Below are positions 2,124 through 12,515 of a DNA stretch of 64,000 nucleotides, one piece after another. Position 1 is the first letter of the stretch. The number at the start of each line of letters is the position of its first letter. The stretch is from Patescibacteria group bacterium (lineage in GTDB: Bacteria > Patescibacteriota > Patescibacteriia > Patescibacteriales > UBA12465), in assembly GCA_041651095.1 (NCBI GenBank), contig JBAZJV010000005.1:1160-65159 (forward strand). The letters are read 5' to 3'. The notes under the pieces were generated by a model, which was not told the DNA's origin, ran no database searches, and saw only the letters and a program-made list of their open reading frames with translations. The position numbers were made by a program, and so were the translations under genes.

Positions 2124-2843
2124 TTATTTCACTCCGAAAGTCGCCTTGACCGTCACCATGACTTCCTTATCGATGCTGGAAGTGTCATAGGAGCCGTAAT
2201 CGGAAATTTCAATGGAGCCGACCGGCATCACCTGTACCACGCCCATATTGACGCCGCGCACCGTGTCCAAGGAGCGGCCGTCGCTTTCCGCGATAGCCGT
2301 CGCCCGGGCCTTGGCGTCCTTAATAGCATTCGGCAATAAGGAAACGCGCAGCTCCGGCAGCTTGGAATAATAGTATTCTACCGAGTTGGCCGAGAAGATG
2401 ATGTCTTTAGCCGCTATCTGGTCGCTGTTCTTGGCCAGCTCTTTCATCTTGTTCACGTCGTCGGACTTGATTTCGATATTCTGAGTCAGGTTATATTCCT
2501 TGGGCGCGTTGGCGTCGTTCTTATAGATCTCATGCATAAAGACCGGCGAGATCTCATACTTTCCTTTGAAGCCTTGAGCATCCAGGAAATCGCTGACTTT
2601 TTTCTCGTCAATTTTCATCTGGCTATAGCCGCCCTTGATGTTGTCACGAAAAGCGGTCCGGCTGAAATTGCCGGTCCAGCGGGCCTGGTCCGCGGTTACG
2701 GTCTGCTTGGCCGAGCCGGAGACCGAGATGACGTTATCCAGGTTCTTGACGGCAAAGAAGGTCCGCCCGACGACCGCCGCCGCGATGATGATGCTCAAGC
2801 CCAAGATTAGGCCGAAAACCACCGATTTGTTGGAATTCTCCAT
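2124..2843 (-). CDS. SIMPL/DUF541-family protein (membrane-anchored, periplasmic-type)
   Basis: 239 aa. N-terminal hydrophobic anchor (VVFGLILGLSIIIAAAVV). The overall pattern resembles the 26-kDa periplasmic immunogenic protein/SIMPL family (recognised by eye). Confidence 0.7.
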   Translation of the reverse strand: MENSNKSVVFGLILGLSIIIAAAVVGRTFFAVKNLDNVISVSGSAKQTVTADQARWTGNFSRTAFRDNIKGGYSQMKIDEKKVSDFLDAQGFKGKYEISPVFMHEIYKNDANAPKEYNLTQNIEIKSDDVNKMKELAKNSDQIAAKDIIFSANSVEYYYSKLPELRVSLLPNAIKDAKARATAIAESDGRSLDTVRGVNMGVVQVMPVGSIEISDYGSYDTSSIDKEVMVTVKATFGVK

Positions 2844-2869
2844 ATTTTTTAATCTAATTAATTAATTCT

Positions 2870-2901
2870 TTATTATTATAGCACATTATTATTATAGCAC
2901 A
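2870..2901 (-). promoter_or_regulatory. perfect 16-bp tandem duplication carrying two extended -10 boxes (TGTGCTATAAT) upstream of the SIMPL gene
   Basis: Plus strand reads TTATTATTATAGCACA twice (2870-2885, 2886-2901). The minus strand reads TGTGCTATAATAATAA twice, i.e. TGnTATAAT. It lies between the Fic stop (2902) and the SIMPL start (2843). Confidence 0.5.
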
Positions 2902-4095
2902 TTATTTATGAACCGTCCGTTCTTTTTTCCTGGCTGATCGAAAGCTTTCATCGAATATTTCATAGTAATCGCCATAAATATATTTCTGTCCATAACTCTC
3001 CTCTCCTAAAGGCTCCAGAATTTTCATCCCTCTTAAACGGTCTATGACCTTATAGGCGCCGGGTGCCGTAAAACCGGACCATCTGGCTATTTCGGCTACG
3101 CCGACAATCGGCTGACTGAATAATTTGCGAATTATTTCCAGGGTCGGGGCGGCGGCTCGCGCGCCCAGCTGCTGGGCCTTGGCAAAGTCCCGGTCTCGCA
3201 AACTGGTGATCTGGGCGCAAGTTTCTATGGCCGACTGGGCTATTTCCGCCACTCCTTCCAGAAAAAAATCAAGCCAGGCGGCGACTTGCGCCTCTTCCTC
3301 GTGATAGGCCTGCAATTTCTGGTAATATAATTTTTGATATTTCTTAAAATAGCTGGATAAATATAAGACTGGCAAATCCAGCAAGCCGGCATGATGGATG
3401 AACAAAGCAATCAGCATCCGTCCGGTCCGGCCGTTACCGTCGGTAAAAGGATGGATAGTTTCAAACTGAGCATGCAGCAGCCCGGCCTTCACCAAAGACG
3501 GATAATCATCGGCGGCATGGATGAATCGCTCCAGGTCGTTAAGAGCCACTTGCATATCAGCCGGCGGCGGCGGGACAAAAGCGGCGTCGGACGGAGTCTT
3601 GCCGCCGATCCAATTCTGCGAACGGCGAAATTCACCCGGATAAGCGTGCTGGGTGGCTCTGGCGCCTTGCATTAATTTAGCATGGACTTCGCGTATCAAT
3701 CTTAAAGATATCGGCAAATCCTTAATCCGATCAGTGCCGTAATTTACGGCTTCCACATAGTGCAGGATATCATCAACATCCGGAGCCAACCTGGACTTTT
3801 CTTCCGTCACTGCTTCGGCGATAACATCCTGTAAGGTCGCTTTTGTGCCCTCGATCTGGCTGGAATAAGCGGCGTCTTTCTTGATGAACATTAACAGAAA
3901 AAAATCTTTATCCGGCAAAAGGCGGGTAATGCCGTCTAATTTGCCGACCAGCCTGATCGCTTCTTCATGTTTCTTATGCAGTTTCGAGGAAATAAAAATA
4001 CCCTCTTGAGGAGGAAAGGGATAAGGAATAAAAGCCGGATAACCGTTCTTTTGCTGGATATAGCGGCCGATTTTTATTTTGTTTATATCTTCCAT
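2902..4095 (-). CDS. Fic-family protein (AMPylase type) with N-terminal Fic_N region and C-terminal wHTH
   Basis: 397 aa. Canonical Fic motif HPFTDGNGRTGR. Upstream inhibitory-helix-type motif SSQIEG ([ST]xxxE[GN]). C-terminal HTH-like segment (VGVAEIARWSGFTAPGAYKVIDRL). Confidence 0.9.
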   Translation of the reverse strand: MEDINKIKIGRYIQQKNGYPAFIPYPFPPQEGIFISSKLHKKHEEAIRLVGKLDGITRLLPDKDFFLLMFIKKDAAYSSQIEGTKATLQDVIAEAVTEEKSRLAPDVDDILHYVEAVNYGTDRIKDLPISLRLIREVHAKLMQGARATQHAYPGEFRRSQNWIGGKTPSDAAFVPPPPADMQVALNDLERFIHAADDYPSLVKAGLLHAQFETIHPFTDGNGRTGRMLIALFIHHAGLLDLPVLYLSSYFKKYQKLYYQKLQAYHEEEAQVAAWLDFFLEGVAEIAQSAIETCAQITSLRDRDFAKAQQLGARAAAPTLEIIRKLFSQPIVGVAEIARWSGFTAPGAYKVIDRLRGMKILEPLGEESYGQKYIYGDYYEIFDESFRSARKKERTVHK

Positions 4096-6065: not shown

Positions 6066-7289
6066 TTATAACCCCAACCTCTCCGCCACGTAATCGATGT
6101 CCTTATCGCCCCTCCCGGACAAATTCACGATGATAATTTCGTCCTTCCCTAGCTTAGGCGCAAACTTTATGGCGTGCGCCAAGGCGTGCGCGCTTTCTAA
6201 AGCCGGAATGATGCCCTCTACCTTAGACAACAATTGGAAGGCCTCAAGCGCCTCCTGGTCGCTGGCCGTGACATACTCTACCCGGCCGCAGTCTTTGAGA
6301 TCGGAATGTATCGGCCCCACGCCCGGATAATCCAAACCGGAAGCGATGGAATGCACCGGCAAAGGTTCGCCTTGCTCATCCTGCAATAAATAGGTGAACA
6401 TGCCGTGGATATTGCCCGGCTGCCCCATGGTGAGCGTGGCGGCGTGCTCGCCCGGCTTGAAGCTCCGGCCGCTCGGCTCCACGCCGATCATCTTGACGTA
6501 GTAATCCGTTAGAAATTCGTTGAACAGGCCGATGGCGTTGGAACCGCCGCCCACGCAAGCAATGAGATAGTCCGGCAAGCGGCCGGCCTGTTCCAGGATC
6601 TGCACCCTGGCTTCCCTGCCGACCACGGATTGGAAATCGCGCACCATCATCGGGAACGGATGCGGACCCACGACCGAACCGATGCCGAAAAAAATATTTT
6701 GCGGATCCTGCACGAAAGCCATAAATGCACTATCGACCGCATCCTTCAAACAGCGGCCGCCCGCCTTGACGGCGACCACTTTGGCGCCTAAGAGCTGCAT
6801 GCGGATAACGTTCGGATGCTGCTTGGCGATATCGATTTCACCCATGTGGATCTCGCATTCAATGCCGACCAAAGCGGCCGCCGTGGCCAAAGCGACGCCG
6901 TGCTGGCCGGCGCCGGTTTCCGCTATCAACTTTTTCTTCCCCATGCGTTTAGCCAGTAGCGCCTCGCCCAAAGTATGATTGATCTTATGCGCGCCGGTGT
7001 GATTCAGGTCTTCCCGCTTCAGATATATTTTCGCCCCGCCTAAGCGTTCCGACAAATTCTTGGCATAGTATAGCGGCGACTGCCGACCCACATAGTCTTT
7101 CAGGAGCTGTTCATATTCCGCGCGGAAAGCCGGATCGGCCTGCGCTTTATGATACTCGACCGCGATCTCATCGAAGATCGGTTTCAGTTCCGGCGGAATT
7201 ATCTGTCCGCCGTACTTCCCAAAATAGCCGGCCGCGTCCGGCAAGGCCCGGAAAGCGACCTGGTCTTTAGTTTTAGTATTATTGTTCAT
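6066..7289 (-). CDS. trpB: tryptophan synthase beta chain
   Basis: 407 aa. PLP-lysine context [14 protein letters not shown], plus [16 protein letters not shown] and GLDYPGVGP blocks. No trpA adjacent. Confidence 0.95.
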
Positions 7290-7402
7290 ATGATTATTAT
7301 TTAGTGATTAATCTTCAAGCACGCCGAAACCGGCGTTCTAATGGCGCCAGCGTTCAGTACAGCGATGATGGAAATAATAATGCATAAATAAATTGGATAA
7401 AT

Positions 7403-7438
7403 AAAAAACTGCCCTCTGTTAGTAAGACACTGGGCAGT
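7403..7438 (-). terminator. leader (attenuator) terminator upstream of trpB
   Basis: Minus strand: ACUGCCC-ag-UGU-cuuacua-ACA-ga-GGGCAGU followed by U6 (7408-7403). It sits about 115 nt before the trpB ATG and after a separate promoter. Confidence 0.65.
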
Positions 7439-7467
7439 TTAAGCAATGATAATACGACGCGAAAAGA

Positions 7468-7527
7468 CTACCCAATATCTTGGGCCGTCCACCAAGTCTG
7501 ATTCATGGCGTGCTGATACTGATTCAT
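7468..7527 (-). CDS. putative trp leader peptide MNQYQHAMNQTWWTAQDIG (tandem Trp codons)
   Basis: 19 codons plus TAG, read by eye (too short for the ORF track). TGG TGG at 7494-7489. No SD; the ATG lies only 6-9 nt after the -10 box (leaderless-like). The stop codon lies inside the antiterminator segment. Confidence 0.5.
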   Translation of the reverse strand: MNQYQHAMNQTWWTAQDIG

Positions 7528-7536
7528 AGTGGAATT

Positions 7537-7565
7537 ATAATAGCAAATTATATTAATATTGGCAA
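7537..7565 (-). promoter_or_regulatory. promoter of the trpB leader (TTGCCA-17-TATTAT, overlapping TATAAT)
   Basis: Minus strand: -35 TTGCCA at 7565-7560, 17-nt spacer, -10 TATTAT at 7542-7537. An alternative TATAAT lies at 7539-7534. Confidence 0.55.
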
Positions 7566-8360: not shown

Positions 8361-9593
8361 ATGAATAAGAGAGATAAACAAACTTTGTCACGACTGCTGA
8401 CGGGCTTTTCTAAAAACAAAATCTACCAAGCTCAAAAGAAAGTCGTCCTGCCTTATTCTAATCTTAACGAACTGCCAGATTCGGTTTTGGATCAGATCGC
8501 TCAACTACGGAATGACCGCCCGGTCGTTTTCGTCCTGTATTATGGCGGCACGATCGGCATGGTTAAACTGCAAGCCGCTTTGCACAAAGATGTTTACAAG
8601 CCGACCAACGATGCCAAAAAACTGCTTGAACCGTTGGCTATCAAAGGGCTAACCGAAAAAGTGCAAGTCGTTTGGGTACCGGTGTACACTAAGGCTATCG
8701 ATTCTACCAACGGACGCTGGGTCCATTGGGTCAGTATCGGTAATGCCATCCGCCTGCTTTACGATATTGCTACCGGTTTTGTCATCTGCGGTGGCACAGA
8801 CACTATGGCTCATATGCTGGCGGCCATGAAATTCATGTTTCCTAATATCGGCAAACCAATCATTGGTACCGGCGCTCAGATTCCGATGGTGGAACTCGGC
8901 GATGATGCTACTAATAACCTTTATTTCGCCATCACTGCGGCAGTCAGCGACCTCAGCGGCCCCTTCCTGATGTTCGGCGACCAGTTGATGGAAGGCTGCC
9001 ATATCCATAAATGGAAAGATAAACGGCGCGACGCCTTCACCTGCCCTGAACAATATCTGTTGGGACGCTATTATGACAAATTAGTCATTTTCCCCAACGC
9101 TCCCCGACGCAATCCGATTGTTACCTTGCCGCGCTTGATTTACAAACCAAACTTCCGCGAAGGAGTAAACGTTCTTAAGATAAGCCCGGCTACTGCTTCT
9201 GAATCTATCATCCATTCCGCTTTAGATCCGACCTGTAGCGCGTTGCTGCTCATTACTTATGGTGCCGGCAATGTCCGCGATGAAAGAATCATCAAGGCTG
9301 AAAAAACGCACATTGAATGTCTCTGGCGCTTACGCGAAGCTAACTATCCTGTAGTCCTGGGTAGTCCGATGACCGACGGCGTAGTAGACAGTCCTTATCT
9401 AAGCGGCGCTTTAGCTGTTTCCAAAAAACCGGGAGATGGTAACGCTATCTCCGGCGGCAGTACTACCGGTGCCGCGCTGGAAGTCAAATGCATGGCCGAT
9501 TTAGACTACTCCTGGGATGAATCACAGGAAATTCTCGACTATGATAAATTCGAGGAATTTATGACTACTAATCACGTCGGGGAATTGGACTGA
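8361..9593 (+). CDS. asparaginase/glutaminase-family protein (type I-like) with a ~55-aa N-terminal extension
   Basis: 410 aa. YYGGTIGM (TGGTI-type nucleophile motif), CGGTDTMAH (HGTDTM block) and KPIIGTGAQIPM...DATNNL. Confidence 0.8.
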   Translation: MNKRDKQTLSRLLTGFSKNKIYQAQKKVVLPYSNLNELPDSVLDQIAQLRNDRPVVFVLYYGGTIGMVKLQAALHKDVYKPTNDAKKLLEPLAIKGLTEKVQVVWVPVYTKAIDSTNGRWVHWVSIGNAIRLLYDIATGFVICGGTDTMAHMLAAMKFMFPNIGKPIIGTGAQIPMVELGDDATNNLYFAITAAVSDLSGPFLMFGDQLMEGCHIHKWKDKRRDAFTCPEQYLLGRYYDKLVIFPNAPRRNPIVTLPRLIYKPNFREGVNVLKISPATASESIIHSALDPTCSALLLITYGAGNVRDERIIKAEKTHIECLWRLREANYPVVLGSPMTDGVVDSPYLSGALAVSKKPGDGNAISGGSTTGAALEVKCMADLDYSWDESQEILDYDKFEEFMTTNHVGELD

Positions 9594-11313: not shown

Positions 11314-12411
11314 TTAGATCAACTCATTCTCGATATTGATTTCGCCGTGTAGATCTTCCACCATCTTCTGTTTGATCTGTTCATAGCTGAAGTTCTGGGC
11401 CAAGAGCCAAGCCAGCTTAGTGGTCATGGATTCGATGCTCATGTCATAGGCCGGAATGGCTAGTTCCCTTTCCCGCAAGATTTTGCCGGACTCGTTGACC
11501 TGGAAACTGGCGATGCCGCTGGGGGCTTGCGAAGTCACCACGATCGGAATCTGTTTTTCTTTCAGGTATTCAAAGCCGGGCAAGAGGTGCTGGCTGGCGT
11601 CGCCGGCGCCGAAAGCGCGGAAGACGAAAGCTTTGATGCCGTTGTTTTCCACCAAAGTTTTGAAGATATCCGGTGACATGCCGGGAAACTCGGTCAAGGA
11701 AGCGATGCTCTTGGTATCAAAATCTTTCTTGACGCTCAGCACGCGGGACTGGATGGCCAAGGGTTTAGTTTTTGACAAATAAGAAATATGCTTATCTAAA
11801 GCGGTCGGCGAAATCCTGATAAACCGGCCGATCTGGCCGAGCGATCCGGTGATGAAAGACGAAAACGGATCATAATCGAAATCCGTACCCTTTTTCACCC
11901 GGACGCCGGAAATGATCTTGCTGCCGAAGACGGCCATGACGCCTTTGATCGGATGATAGCCCCAAACCGCCAGCCGCAAAGAATTGACCAGGTTGGTGGT
12001 AGCATCGGAACCCAGATAGCCCAGCGGCACTTGGGCGCCGGTCAAAATTACCGGCTTATTGATATTCTCTAGGGCAAAAGACAGGGCGGCCGCCGTATAG
12101 CCCATCGTATTGGTGCCATGCAAAACGATGAAAGCGTCGAAATCGTCATAGGTTTCGGCGATCTTAGCGGCAATAGCCGACCAATTCTCCGGCAGCATAT
12201 CAGAGCTATCCACATTGAACAGCTGGACGATTTCGGTCTGAATCTCGATATTCCAATTTTTCTTGACCACCTCGATGGAATTGCCGAGCACGGTCTGGAA
12301 ACTGTCCGGGCCGGACATGATTTTTTCCGTTACCTGATTGACGGCGACATTGCCGGCAATCGTACCGCCGGTCAGAATCAGCAAAATCCTTTTGGTTGTA
12401 TATTGGCCCAT
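11314..12411 (-). CDS. L-asparaginase, type I-like
   Basis: ILLILTGGTIAG, VLHGTNTMGYTAAALSF, KPVILTGAQVP...DATTNL. Start placed at ATG 12411 (MGQYTTKRILLIL...). The track ORF extends to 12498, but that extension has no family counterpart. Confidence 0.85.
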   Translation of the reverse strand: MGQYTTKRILLILTGGTIAGNVAVNQVTEKIMSGPDSFQTVLGNSIEVVKKNWNIEIQTEIVQLFNVDSSDMLPENWSAIAAKIAETYDDFDAFIVLHGTNTMGYTAAALSFALENINKPVILTGAQVPLGYLGSDATTNLVNSLRLAVWGYHPIKGVMAVFGSKIISGVRVKKGTDFDYDPFSSFITGSLGQIGRFIRISPTALDKHISYLSKTKPLAIQSRVLSVKKDFDTKSIASLTEFPGMSPDIFKTLVENNGIKAFVFRAFGAGDASQHLLPGFEYLKEKQIPIVVTSQAPSGIASFQVNESGKILRERELAIPAYDMSIESMTTKLAWLLAQNFSYEQIKQKMVEDLHGEINIENELI

Positions 12412-12424
12412 ATTTTTATGGTTA

Positions 12425-12444
12425 TTAGCTGATAAATCAGCTAA
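12425..12444. promoter_or_regulatory. 20-bp inverted repeat TTAGCTGAT-AA-ATCAGCTAA (candidate operator)
   Basis: Perfect 9-bp arms, 14 bp upstream of the asparaginase ATG (12411), in the divergent intergenic region. Confidence 0.4.
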
Positions 12445-12515
12445 TACCAGTTTATCACAGCCAACCGAATGTGAAAAGCGAATCCTGCGTATTAACATAT
12501 ATAAGACTGAAAAAT

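Follow-up and report, generated by a model that had tools for sequence, protein, structure and literature searches.

A probable ribosome-mediated tryptophan attenuator and a second, peptide-conserved mini-ORF in the leader of a stand-alone trpB gene of Patescibacteria

How is a trpB gene that adjoins no other trp gene regulated in a member of the CPR/Patescibacteria, a group of uncultured bacteria with very small genomes about whose gene regulation, to our knowledge, almost nothing is known? We addressed this question in a stretch of 64,000 nucleotides (hereafter the window) from a Patescibacteria (CPR) MAG, in which trpB (407 amino acids) lies on the minus strand at positions 6066-7289, with its ATG at 7289; all leader features given below were likewise read on the minus strand. 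The encoded protein belongs to the TrpB1 family (565.8 bits against TIGR00263, for which the curated equivalog cut-off is 392.45), and is 100% identical to a protein of a Patescibacteria MAG; CPR bins supply over 120 relatives that share at least 76% identity with it. No trp gene, trpA included, neighbors it, and the most likely role of such a stand-alone enzyme is the salvage of tryptophan from indole and serine. We consider it probable (roughly 80%, judged from sequence analysis) that the leader preceding this gene is a conserved ribosome-mediated tryptophan attenuator, operating through a first mini-ORF (uORF1) and followed by a second stage that contains another (uORF2).

Below the terminator of the upstream gene (about 7614-7587), the initial annotation had placed a promoter, a near-leaderless mini-ORF of 19 codons with two adjacent Trp codons, and four segments that can pair in mutually exclusive ways; direct reading and translation confirmed the coordinates of each of these elements. 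The -35 hexamer TTGCCA (7560-7565) is separated by 17 nt from an extended -10 element, TGc TATTAT (7537-7545, with TG at 7545-7544 and the hexamer at 7542-7537), and a second -10-like TATAAT overlaps it at 7539-7534. This promoter scored 10 of 12 matches in a consensus scan, and TTGACA-like hexamers are found at equal spacing in 18 of 20 relatives. The end of the -10 element is 9 nt from the uORF1 AUG in the window and exactly 6 nt from the start codon in 13 of the 20 relatives (one of these starts is GTG), a spacing that makes uORF1 leaderless by prediction, with only 0-3 nt of transcript ahead of its AUG in the window. A -10 box also directly precedes the ATG of several other genes of this genome; a Shine-Dalgarno (SD) motif is present before only 11 of 51 genes, and none precedes trpB.

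The leader peptide encoded by uORF1 (7468-7527) reads MNQYQHAMNQTWWTAQDIG and ends at a stop codon at 7470-7468; its regulatory tandem Trp codons, UGG-UGG, occupy 7489-7494. Trp codons make up 1.43% of the codons of this genome, TrpB itself contains no Trp residue, and among all ATG-initiated mini-ORFs of up to 45 codons on both strands of the window just four contain two adjacent Trp codons, one of them being the ORF directly before trpB. The same leader was found at 21 other distinct related trpB loci, which are non-syntenic and have unrelated flanking genes, and two of the genomes concerned read TGA as Gly. The layout shared by these loci consists of the extended -10, a mini-ORF with Trp that starts 6-9 nt after it, a hairpin (1:2) with a U-run and then a terminator (3:4). 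Trp codons are present in the mini-ORF of all 21 distinct related leaders for which the upstream region is available (15 have the WW pair and the rest one W or W-R), so that conservation at orthologous loci extends to both the mini-ORF and its Trp codons; the single Trp codon in six members would make for a less sensitive sensor. Every family member has its last UGG 7-9 nt upstream of the segment 1 CCC core, and across the family the stop codon is either within segment 2 or next to it. The peptide ahead of the Trp codons is only 13.5% identical among loci, as is expected of a leader that senses codons.

Within the leader, segment 1 (GGACGGCCCAAG, 7479-7490, with its CCCAA core at 7484-7480) pairs with segment 2 (AUUGGGUAGUCU, 7465-7476, with UUGGG(UAG) at 7475-7468), which contains the uORF1 stop codon and can pair alternatively with segment 3 (AAACUGCCCAGU, 7429-7440, with (A)CUGCCC(AG) at 7438-7430). 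Segment 3 is also the 5' arm of a terminator, whose 3' arm is segment 4 (AGAGGGCAGUUU, 7406-7417, with GGGCAGU at 7414-7408). The pairings first annotated are present, and all of the helices are longer than they had been drawn: in the window, helix 1:2 is GGAC.GCCCAA/UUGGGU.GUCU (-13.2 kcal/mol, z = -3.4 relative to shuffles), helix 2:3 has 10 bp (-13.2 kcal/mol, z = -3.3) and helix 3:4 has 9 bp plus an inner stem (-16.5 kcal/mol, z = -4.3). The run of six U reported after segment 4 was located at 7403-7408, although its first U is the last base of the segment, with five further U and then AUUUAU behind it. A U-run occupies the corresponding place in all relatives, and a predicted intrinsic terminator (3:4 plus U-run) thus separates the leader ORF from the gene. 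Hairpin 1:2 also carries a U-run of its own, overlooked in the initial annotation, which follows the hairpin directly at 7462-7465 and is a candidate site of pausing or early termination (the terminator scan flags 1:2); runs of four to six U follow this hairpin in 17 of 20 relatives.

We evaluated whether these helices are maintained by selection. For the more distant leaders a plain MAFFT alignment put segment 3 in the wrong place, and we therefore relied on an arm alignment (A2) whose register was set by hand and anchored on the CCC/GGG cores, on a permutation test that requires no register and on a covariance model with a narrow seed. In A2 the antiterminator helix 2:3 is 76.7% paired (slid controls, 31-41%), with both sides changed in 10 of 12 pairs, and its covariation score of 0.392 (shuffles, 0.220 +/- 0.026) was reached by none of 500 shuffles, a statistic that kinship among the sequences inflates here and for the other two helices. 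Helix 3:4 is 80.8% paired, with double changes in 9 of 12 pairs and a score equaled by none of 500 shuffles; for helix 1:2 (70.4% paired) covariation is only modest, 13 of 500 shuffles reaching its score. The antiterminator therefore has the strongest covariation of the three. In the register-free test the mean energy of 2:3 was -13.8 kcal/mol when both arms were taken from the same sequence and -9.5 kcal/mol across sequences, a difference found in 0 of 20,000 permutations. The compensatory changes in 2:3 and 3:4 that a ribosome-coupled switch had been predicted to leave are thus well above controls, indicating a selected antiterminator that is exclusive with the terminator. The covariance model, seeded with seven close sequences, recovered seven members from outside the seed, each precisely where it was expected (26-43 bits); at E <= 1 it misses four members (L001, L082, L085 and L088), and it yields terminator-like false matches at 20-27 bits.

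We then considered how the position of a ribosome would influence these structures. A ribosome with UGG in its A site covers segment 1. Full-length equilibrium folds with ribosome masks were ambiguous (2:3 was present in the minimum free energy [MFE] structure in only 6 of 12 sequences, later 9 of 20), and we replaced them with folds of 20 sequences truncated before segment 4, representing the state in which that segment has yet to be transcribed. With a ribosome on UGG and segment 4 not yet made, 2:3 forms in all 20 sequences (10 bp in the window), so that masking segment 1 favors the antiterminator as originally predicted; moving the ribosome to the stop codon gives 3:4 in 19 of 20. A stalled ribosome thus hides segment 1 in these folds, and one at the stop hides segment 2. 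Because the full-length MFE retains the terminator in 11 of 20 sequences, the window included, even with a ribosome on UGG, the switch must be kinetic.

Taken together, anatomy, conservation, covariation and masked folds argue for the logic of the classical trpL attenuator that the initial annotation had seen here. Transcription would start at the uORF1 AUG, or 1-3 nt before it, and a 70S ribosome would consequently load on a leaderless mRNA; the stand-alone trpB would be controlled by a leader of about 275 nt, of which the region considered so far is the 5' half. Hairpin 1:2 and its U-run probably pause RNA polymerase until the ribosome arrives, or terminate transcription if the leader goes untranslated. 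When Trp-tRNA is scarce, the ribosome is expected to stall with UGG-UGG in its A site and to cover segment 1, upon which segment 2 would pair with the emerging segment 3, 3:4 would be blocked and the polymerase would read through. When Trp-tRNA is plentiful, the ribosome would reach the UAG in segment 2 and cover that segment, allowing 3:4 to form and transcription to end at 7408-7403.

The leader matches no known class by similarity. A search of Rfam, over the window at gathering score and over the region at E <= 10, returned nothing credible in the leader and only two tRNAs elsewhere; Trp_leader (RF00513) has no match in the region at either threshold, and there is no covariance-model match to a T-box leader. 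TRAP-regulated trp leaders of the Bacillus type carry nine to eleven (G/U)AG triplets at intervals of 2-3 nt; positions 7533-7400 hold just one UAG and one GAG, and direct reading likewise ruled out a TrpR operator in the window leader.

The anatomy shared with enterobacterial trpL comprises a short ORF whose adjacent Trp codons fall within segment 1 or immediately ahead of it, a hairpin 1:2, a 2:3 antiterminator exclusive with a 3:4 terminator and U-run, a stop codon at which a terminating ribosome would sit over segment 2, and helix energies of similar size. The two differ in that there is no sequence or covariance-model similarity, that the leader ORF is predicted to be leaderless here and is SD-driven in trpL, that a single stand-alone trpB rather than trpEDCBA is controlled, that 1:2 has its own U-run and that a peptide-conserved uORF2 follows the terminator. 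Leader-peptide attenuators, leaderless ones included, are known. In Deinococcus deserti 14 leaderless leader-peptide attenuators have been predicted, including one before trpEGD with a transcription start at -1 (PMC4007540), and mycobacteria have leaderless polycysteine sORFs (bioRxiv 10.1101/834739). The leader described here resembles these in that translation of the mini-ORF begins (by prediction, in our case) at the transcript 5' end or 1 nt from it and in that the regulatory codons fit the pathway of the downstream gene, and differs in its CPR phylum, in hairpins defined by covariation, in the tandem U-runs and in the extra uORF2. The trpRBA operon of Chlamydia trachomatis, which combines TrpR with intergenic control and serves indole salvage (PMC7755916, PMC6504234), likewise belongs to a reduced genome that keeps TrpB for salvage, and one relative of the present leader (L084) has a TrpR-family gene upstream of uORF2 and trpB; unlike trpRBA, the present locus has no trpA and no YtgR-type control, and the window has uORF1 in place of TrpR. 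Trp leader peptides directly before trpB also occur in non-CPR lineages, a point that the initial annotation had missed. Its statement that such attenuators had not been described in CPR agrees with our literature search, which found nothing specific on CPR attenuators, the regulation of trpB in CPR or leaderless translation in CPR.

A second mini-ORF, uORF2, missed in the initial annotation, lies between the terminator and trpB at 7338-7385 and encodes MHYYFHHRCTERWRH (15 residues). Its consensus across loci is M-x-Y-Y-F-x-N-R-[C/S/A]-T-x-x-W-R, with W found in every one of 21 aligned sequences and R in every one of 20; the invariant Trp-Arg codons (UGG-CGC, 7344-7349 in the window) mark the point at which peptide conservation ends. 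Conservation is at the level of amino acids rather than nucleotides: the entropies of the three codon positions are 11.2, 10.9 and 16.6 bits, third positions vary freely, Thr is encoded by all four ACN codons and Ser by both TCN and AGC, and amino-acid identity is 39% for uORF2 compared with 13.5% for uORF1 at the same loci. An HMM of uORF2 matches only before trpB of this clade (at least 24 bits, with noise at 11 bits or less), and a search of a collection of 5.8 billion proteins with the profile recovered only the L084 peptide and one 45-residue 'hypothetical protein', which led to one more locus of the same architecture; these two 'hypothetical' calls are the only annotations that uORF2 has received. 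Sequence comparison thus indicates that the peptide sequence of uORF2, beyond its single Trp codon, is under selection, and uORF2 may be a new regulatory nascent peptide. The second stage would act on transcripts that read through the terminator, where the nascent chain may modulate the progress of the ribosome at W-R as a second checkpoint on trpB, in response to Trp-tRNA or possibly to a small ligand. The start codon is at a nearly fixed distance from W, which is residue 13 or residue 14 in 15 of 21 sequences, and W-R lies 49-67 nt before the trpB AUG in 19 of 21; the interval between W-R and the stop codon varies from 0 to more than 30 codons, giving total lengths of 14 to 47 or more residues. 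RNAalifold found no consensus structure downstream of uORF2, and the corresponding region of the window is no more structured than shuffles (z = +0.2). A pairing of the 5' end of uORF2 with the trpB initiation region (13 bp in the window) is not conserved across loci (-4.1 kcal/mol within and -3.6 kcal/mol across sequences, p = 0.09). Given the variable stop and the lack of a consistent downstream structure, anatomy alone yields no mechanism for uORF2.

The best surviving alternative, possible if tentative, is that uORF2 and a small hairpin beginning at its UGG-CGN codons form a second, minimal Trp-codon attenuator in series, in which a weak terminator would lose its 5' arm to a ribosome stalled at the single UGG, and the conservation of the peptide would be incidental or would only tune decoding speed. 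The UGGCG arm does find a downstream complement more often than it does in shuffles (mean z = -1.21, with z < -1 in 14 of 21), a U-rich tract usually follows the hairpin, and the spacing between W and the trpB AUG is confined to 49-67 nt. Unrelated lineages moreover have W-W-R and W-R in their Trp leader peptides (E. coli TrpL, with GWWRTS, has W-W-R too), and L084 would then mirror the E. coli combination of TrpR and an attenuator. However, the hairpins have only 4-7 bp, with loops often of 10-20 nt and without a consensus structure, and the absence of structure beyond shuffles in the window applies here as well; roughly half of the members have their uORF2 stop well beyond the hairpin, so that a ribosome that did not stall would block the hairpin also. 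Such an arrangement also leaves unexplained why F(-8), N(-6), R(-5), C/S/A(-4) and T(-3) are under selection while the third codon positions are free.

A somewhat more doubtful proposal, made by analogy, is that uORF2 encodes a ligand-sensing arrest peptide: the chain of 13-14 residues, together with free Trp or indole in the exit tunnel, would arrest the ribosome at W-R and in this way set the expression of trpB. Capture of a metabolite by ribosome and nascent chain has a precedent in TnaC, and SpeFL provides another (bioRxiv 10.1101/604074). Like these, uORF2 encodes a short leader peptide with a conserved sequence, in which conservation stops at a defined codon, and it has an invariant Trp before a gene of Trp metabolism. 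Conservation at the peptide level, fixed spacing, the nearly fixed start and the abrupt end at W-R, with the downstream sequence and stop free, point in this direction, as does the occurrence of a single invariant Trp in place of several consecutive Trp codons. L084 retains uORF2 although the TrpR-family gene replaces uORF1 directly upstream, and the keeping of uORF2 when the transcription-level Trp sensor is swapped suggests a non-redundant signal. However, the sequence of uORF2 resembles neither TnaC nor SpeFL, its invariant W adjoins the presumed stall site rather than preceding it by 12 residues, the gene behind it serves the synthesis of Trp and not its breakdown, and neither the pairing test nor RNAalifold revealed a downstream element for an arrested ribosome to control. 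The more specific proposal, that uORF2 represents a hitherto unrecognized arrest-peptide family sensing free tryptophan or indole in the exit tunnel and forming a two-input gate with uORF1 (or with TrpR in L084), we regard as unlikely as it stands; if true, salvage TrpB would be made only when Trp is needed and substrate is available.

It is improbable that uORF2 encodes a free micro-protein acting in trans, for example on TrpB. Selection at the peptide level would fit this, and peTrpL of Sinorhizobium meliloti is a leader peptide for which a trans function is documented (PMC7298713); yet the C-terminus and length of uORF2 vary (14 to 47 residues or more), it is confined to the trpB leader and, barring the two 'hypothetical' calls, it has never been annotated or named.

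Least credible of all is a leader that senses no ribosome and consists of two similar tandem terminators or pause hairpins, read by a protein or unread, with fortuitous mini-ORFs: segments 1 and 3, and 2 and 4, are indeed alike (a 1:4 control is also 81% paired), which makes some 2:3 complementarity automatic, but the loop-side pairs are formed preferentially in 2:3 (c11-g2 in 18 of 20 sequences, compared with 9 of 20 in 1:2 and 12 of 20 in 3:4; c12-g1 in 14 of 20, compared with 4 of 20 and 11 of 20), the co-evolution of the two hairpins across lineages requires a constraint that links both, the in-frame start by the -10, the Trp-to-segment 1 distance and the stop in or beside segment 2 are conserved, the gene controlled is trpB, and there is no T-box or other Rfam match and no TRAP-type triplet repeat.

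The ribosome-mediated attenuator thus remains our preferred reading of the trpB leader, which constitutes a cis-regulatory RNA family in CPR defined by covariation. On this evidence CPR bacteria would couple transcription to leaderless translation and would use the logic of sensing charged tRNA known from E. coli. The family travels with trpB as a cassette across unrelated contexts and spans two genetic codes, and the devotion of about 275 nt of control to one salvage enzyme suggests that the supply of Trp or indole fluctuates and matters to these organisms. Very few metabolite-linked regulatory nascent peptides in bacteria are known to us, and uORF2 is a testable candidate for a new one.

The trpB leader (minus strand, as are all leader coordinates here; trpB start at 7289) reads directly as the initial annotation had described it: the promoter, the 19-codon leader ORF with tandem Trp codons and without a Shine-Dalgarno (SD) sequence, and the four pairing segments all lie exactly where they had been placed. 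The -35 element TTGCCA (7565-7560) is followed, after a 17-nt spacer, by a -10 element TATTAT (7542-7537) with TG before it, and a consensus scan matched this promoter at 10 of 12 positions. The leader ORF (uORF1; MNQYQHAMNQTWWTAQDIG*, 7527-7468) has its UGG-UGG at 7494-7489; only four ATG mini-ORFs of up to 45 codons anywhere in the 64-kb window, both strands counted, bear WW. Segment 2 can pair with segment 1 (hairpin 1:2) or with segment 3 (the antiterminator, 2:3), and segment 3 with segment 4 (the terminator, 3:4). Taken alone, helices 1:2, 2:3 and 3:4 have energies of -13.2, -13.2 and -16.5 kcal/mol (z = -3.4, -3.3 and -4.3, respectively, relative to dinucleotide shuffles), the same order of stabilities as in the E. 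coli trp leader, and the unconstrained minimum free energy structure combines 1:2 and 3:4. The U-run of the terminator (7408-7403) lies 113 nt 5' of the trpB ATG (about 115 nt had been estimated). Hairpin 1:2 was flagged as terminator-like by the same consensus scan and has UUUU(C/G) directly 3' of it (hairpin and U-run together, 7462-7490), with a U4-6 run at this place in 17 of 20 sequences; the leader therefore contains two tandem terminator-like hairpins, the first of which may be a pause site synchronising polymerase with ribosome. uORF1 opens with ATGAATCAG, and an in-frame repeat of these nine bases 21 nt further on forms codons 8-10 (7498-7527 for the stretch with both copies). A second start at this repeat is possible, with WW then at codons 5-6; judging by where the -10 box lies, the first ATG is the more probable start.

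The gene so preceded encodes a canonical TrpB of 407 amino acids (TIGR00263, 565.8 bits versus a cut-off of 392), 100% identical to a protein of a 'Patescibacteria group bacterium' MAG (NCBI naming); more than 120 TrpB clusters from Falkowbacteria, Magasanikbacteria, Parcubacteria and Gracilibacteria bins are 76-88% identical to it. TrpB contains no Trp residue, in the window and relatives alike. The genome has 49.7% G+C, and 1.43% of its codons are Trp codons. The neighbors of trpB encode a histidine-phosphatase-like protein, a PfkB kinase, a Fic protein and an asparaginase, with no second trp gene among them in the window; the relatives' trpB genes are also solitary, with unrelated flanks that differ from locus to locus. 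Two asparaginase-family genes lie near trpB, less than 4 kb apart (8361-9593, plus strand; 11314-12498, minus strand).

TrpB scans of genome and metagenome collections, together with look-ups of ten relatives, yielded 21 additional distinct loci whose upstream region was available, and all 21 carry a mini-ORF with one or more Trp codons followed by a terminator, so that conservation at orthologous loci, on which the original proposal depended, is borne out. WW is present in 15 of them, a single W in five and W-R in one (L164); in one locus, from Peribacteria, uORF1 has a third W besides WW. The peptide before W is not conserved (13.5% identity, without codon periodicity), and the part after it is conserved as WWTA(Q/H)(N/D)IG* because segments 1 and 2 are encoded there. 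In the relatives the final UGG lies 7-9 nt 5' of the CCC core of segment 1, and the stop codon falls in the 1:2 loop, within segment 2 or directly 3' of it. In 13 of 20 sequences (one with a GTG start) exactly 6 nt separate the end of the -10 element from the start codon, and in the window 9 nt do; this proximity predicts leaderless or nearly leaderless uORF1 transcripts, as had been suggested for the window. SD-like motifs are found before just 11 of the window's 51 long ORFs (background 9%), and a TGnTAnAAT box lies 6-8 nt 5' of the ATG at several other genes (for example, ...tgctataatgtaaggtATG); from these two features SD-less and leaderless initiation look normal in this organism, which suggests that leaderless mRNAs are common in its genome. 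One locus, L001 (CAZSCF010000001.1), from a MAG labeled 'uncultured Bdellovibrionales', has a 75% identical trpB with a complete CPR-type two-ORF leader, reflecting either a binning or labeling error or transfer of the trpB cassette.

The four arms vary together across loci. Segments 1 to 4 are GCCCAA, UUGGGU, CUGCCCAG and GGGCAG in the window; GCUCAA, UUGAGU, CUGCUCAA and UUGAGCAG in locus L081; CUCAC, GUGGG, CCCACA and UGUGGG in L087; and ACCGUCUA, UAGGCGGU, ACCGCCUA and UAGGCGGU in L083. We aligned four 12-nt arms from 20 sequences, registered by hand on the CCC/GGG cores and not optimised for 2:3. Helix 2:3 is paired in 76.7% of cells (31-41% when slid), with double changes at 10 of 12 pairs and a covariation score (0.392, versus 0.220 +/- 0.026 for shuffled alignments) reached by 0 of 500 shuffles; the corresponding values are 80.8%, 9 of 12, 0.327 and 0 of 500 for 3:4, and 70.4%, 7 of 12, 0.275 and 9 of 500 for 1:2 (these shuffle counts are not probabilities, because the sequences are related; the alignment is also hand-made). 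Compensatory changes are thus present in both helices for which the initial annotation had proposed to look for them. Two similar hairpins might pair across one another as a by-product; the loop-side pair c11-g2, however, is formed in 18 of 20 sequences in 2:3 and often unpaired in the other two helices (formed in 9 of 20 in 1:2 and 12 of 20 in 3:4), which argues that 2:3 is under selection of its own. Independently of register, segments 2 and 3 pair at -13.8 kcal/mol within the same sequence versus -9.5 kcal/mol between different sequences (0 of 20,000 permutations). A covariance model with structure 1:2 plus 3:4, seeded with seven close sequences, recovered seven loci (L178, L083, L022, L175, L087, L173 and L180), each precisely where expected, with 26-43 bits; terminator-like noise for this model was 20-27 bits.

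We then folded the leaders under a ribosome mask (-15 to +12 nt about the A-site codon). In full-length equilibrium folds, 11 of 20 sequences, including the window, retain the terminator; with the decision state modeled as a transcript ending just 5' of segment 4, all 20 sequences form 2:3 when the ribosome is on UGG, with 6-11 bp (10 bp in the window). Moving the ribosome to the stop codon removes 2:3, and 3:4 forms in 19 of 20, as had been anticipated. This modeled behavior is that of a kinetic attenuator. The original observation is confirmed and its interpretation supported: we consider it very probable (roughly 0.85) that uORF1 and its helices constitute a Trp-tRNA-sensing transcription attenuator.

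The logic is that of the enterobacterial trpL attenuator, and the leader matches no Rfam family, Trp_leader included. Among 160 TrpB loci, WW(R) mini-ORFs also occur outside the clade, 80-110 nt 5' of trpB and mostly followed by a U-run (L002 at 3873, a Bacillota MAG; L024 at 3876, Leucobacter; L058 at 3854, Ancylomarina; and, on unassigned contigs, L105 at 339, L113 at 2851, L118 at 1667, L128 at 1685 and L129 at 1344); the principle is therefore not CPR-specific. W-W-R is recurrent among these mini-ORFs, as it is present in E. coli TrpL. Attenuation by leader peptides is documented for Proteobacteria and Actinobacteria, with predicted cases in Firmicutes (PMC2965389). Deinococcus deserti has predicted leaderless versions, among them one for trpEGD, whose TSS is at -1 (PMC4007540), and in mycobacteria leaderless attenuators have been shown for polycysteine sORFs (bioRxiv 10.1101/834739).

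A second mini-ORF, absent from the initial annotation, starts 17 nt after the U-run (uORF2; MHYYFHHRCTERWRH*, 7385-7338). Of the 21 relatives with uORF1, 20 have it, as does L084, and it is absent from all eight non-clade loci. Its consensus is M-x-[Y/F]-[Y/I]-F-x-N-R-[C/S/A]-T-[E/Q/Y]-x-W-R, with W and R invariant and F5 and T10 nearly so. Summed entropies at codon positions 1, 2 and 3 are 11.2, 10.9 and 16.6 bits, nucleotide identities are 0.55, 0.61 and 0.37, Thr is encoded by ACT, ACC, ACA and ACG and Ser by TCN and AGC, and the nine residues before W are 39% identical, versus 13.5% for uORF1 at the same loci; on this sequence evidence, selection on uORF2 is evidently acting on the peptide. 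Conservation ends at W-R, the stop following 0 to more than 30 codons later and sometimes overlapping trpB; even so, 19 of 21 sequences have 49-67 nt between W and the trpB AUG. The peptide matches no known family. A profile HMM matched only before trpB of this clade (44,000 mini-peptides from 180 loci; once in the window), and a profile search of 5.8 billion proteins gave just two annotated instances, neither of them named; through one of these a further locus of complete architecture was reached. In L083, the conserved G-x-Y-G-G-Q motif of TrpB contains an in-frame TGA (around 3001-3030), so TGA is Gly there (code 25, Gracilibacteria/Absconditabacteria type); this locus and L180, whose bin is named Gracilibacteria, both retain the complete two-ORF leader, and some TGA 'stops' of uORF2 would be read through in such genomes.

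At L084, uORF1 and the terminator are replaced by a TrpR-family gene (84 aa, region 2560-3020; 53.5 bits to TIGR01321, below cut-off, and 41.1 bits to YerC/YecD) with an ACTAGT-type palindrome (GTACTATCATACTAGTAC) in its promoter; it ends 2 nt 5' of the uORF2 AUG, and uORF2 extends 44 nt into trpB. The Peribacteria locus L004 has uORF1 without uORF2. Each module can thus occur without the other, and the two are presumably non-redundant.

We infer that uORF2 is translated and that its nascent peptide matters. Two models lead: uORF2 may be a second Trp-tRNA checkpoint tuned by its peptide, or an arrest peptide that senses a ligand. Downstream of the UGGCG in the W-R codons there tends to be a complementary sequence and then a U-rich tract (mean z = -1.21; below -1 in 14 of 21). 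This suggests a hairpin acting as a weak second terminator or as a pause site, which would be occluded by a ribosome at W-R; its stems are short and its loops long, RNAalifold gave no consensus structure for it, and the corresponding region of the window is unremarkable (z = +0.2). In the window the 5' end of uORF2 can pair over 13 bp with the trpB initiation region, but the relatives do not conserve this pairing (p = 0.09), and it was rejected. A trans-acting micro-protein is less likely because the length and C-terminus of uORF2 are free.

A full-text literature search found no description of attenuators, trpB control or leaderless translation in CPR bacteria, in agreement with the initial annotation as regards attenuators. 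What is new is the leader family itself, its occurrence in CPR bacteria including TGA = Gly genomes, the design with two successive hairpins each followed by a U-run and, most of all, uORF2 with its conserved peptide; the importance of the finding rests mainly on uORF2 and on the insight it gives into CPR gene regulation.
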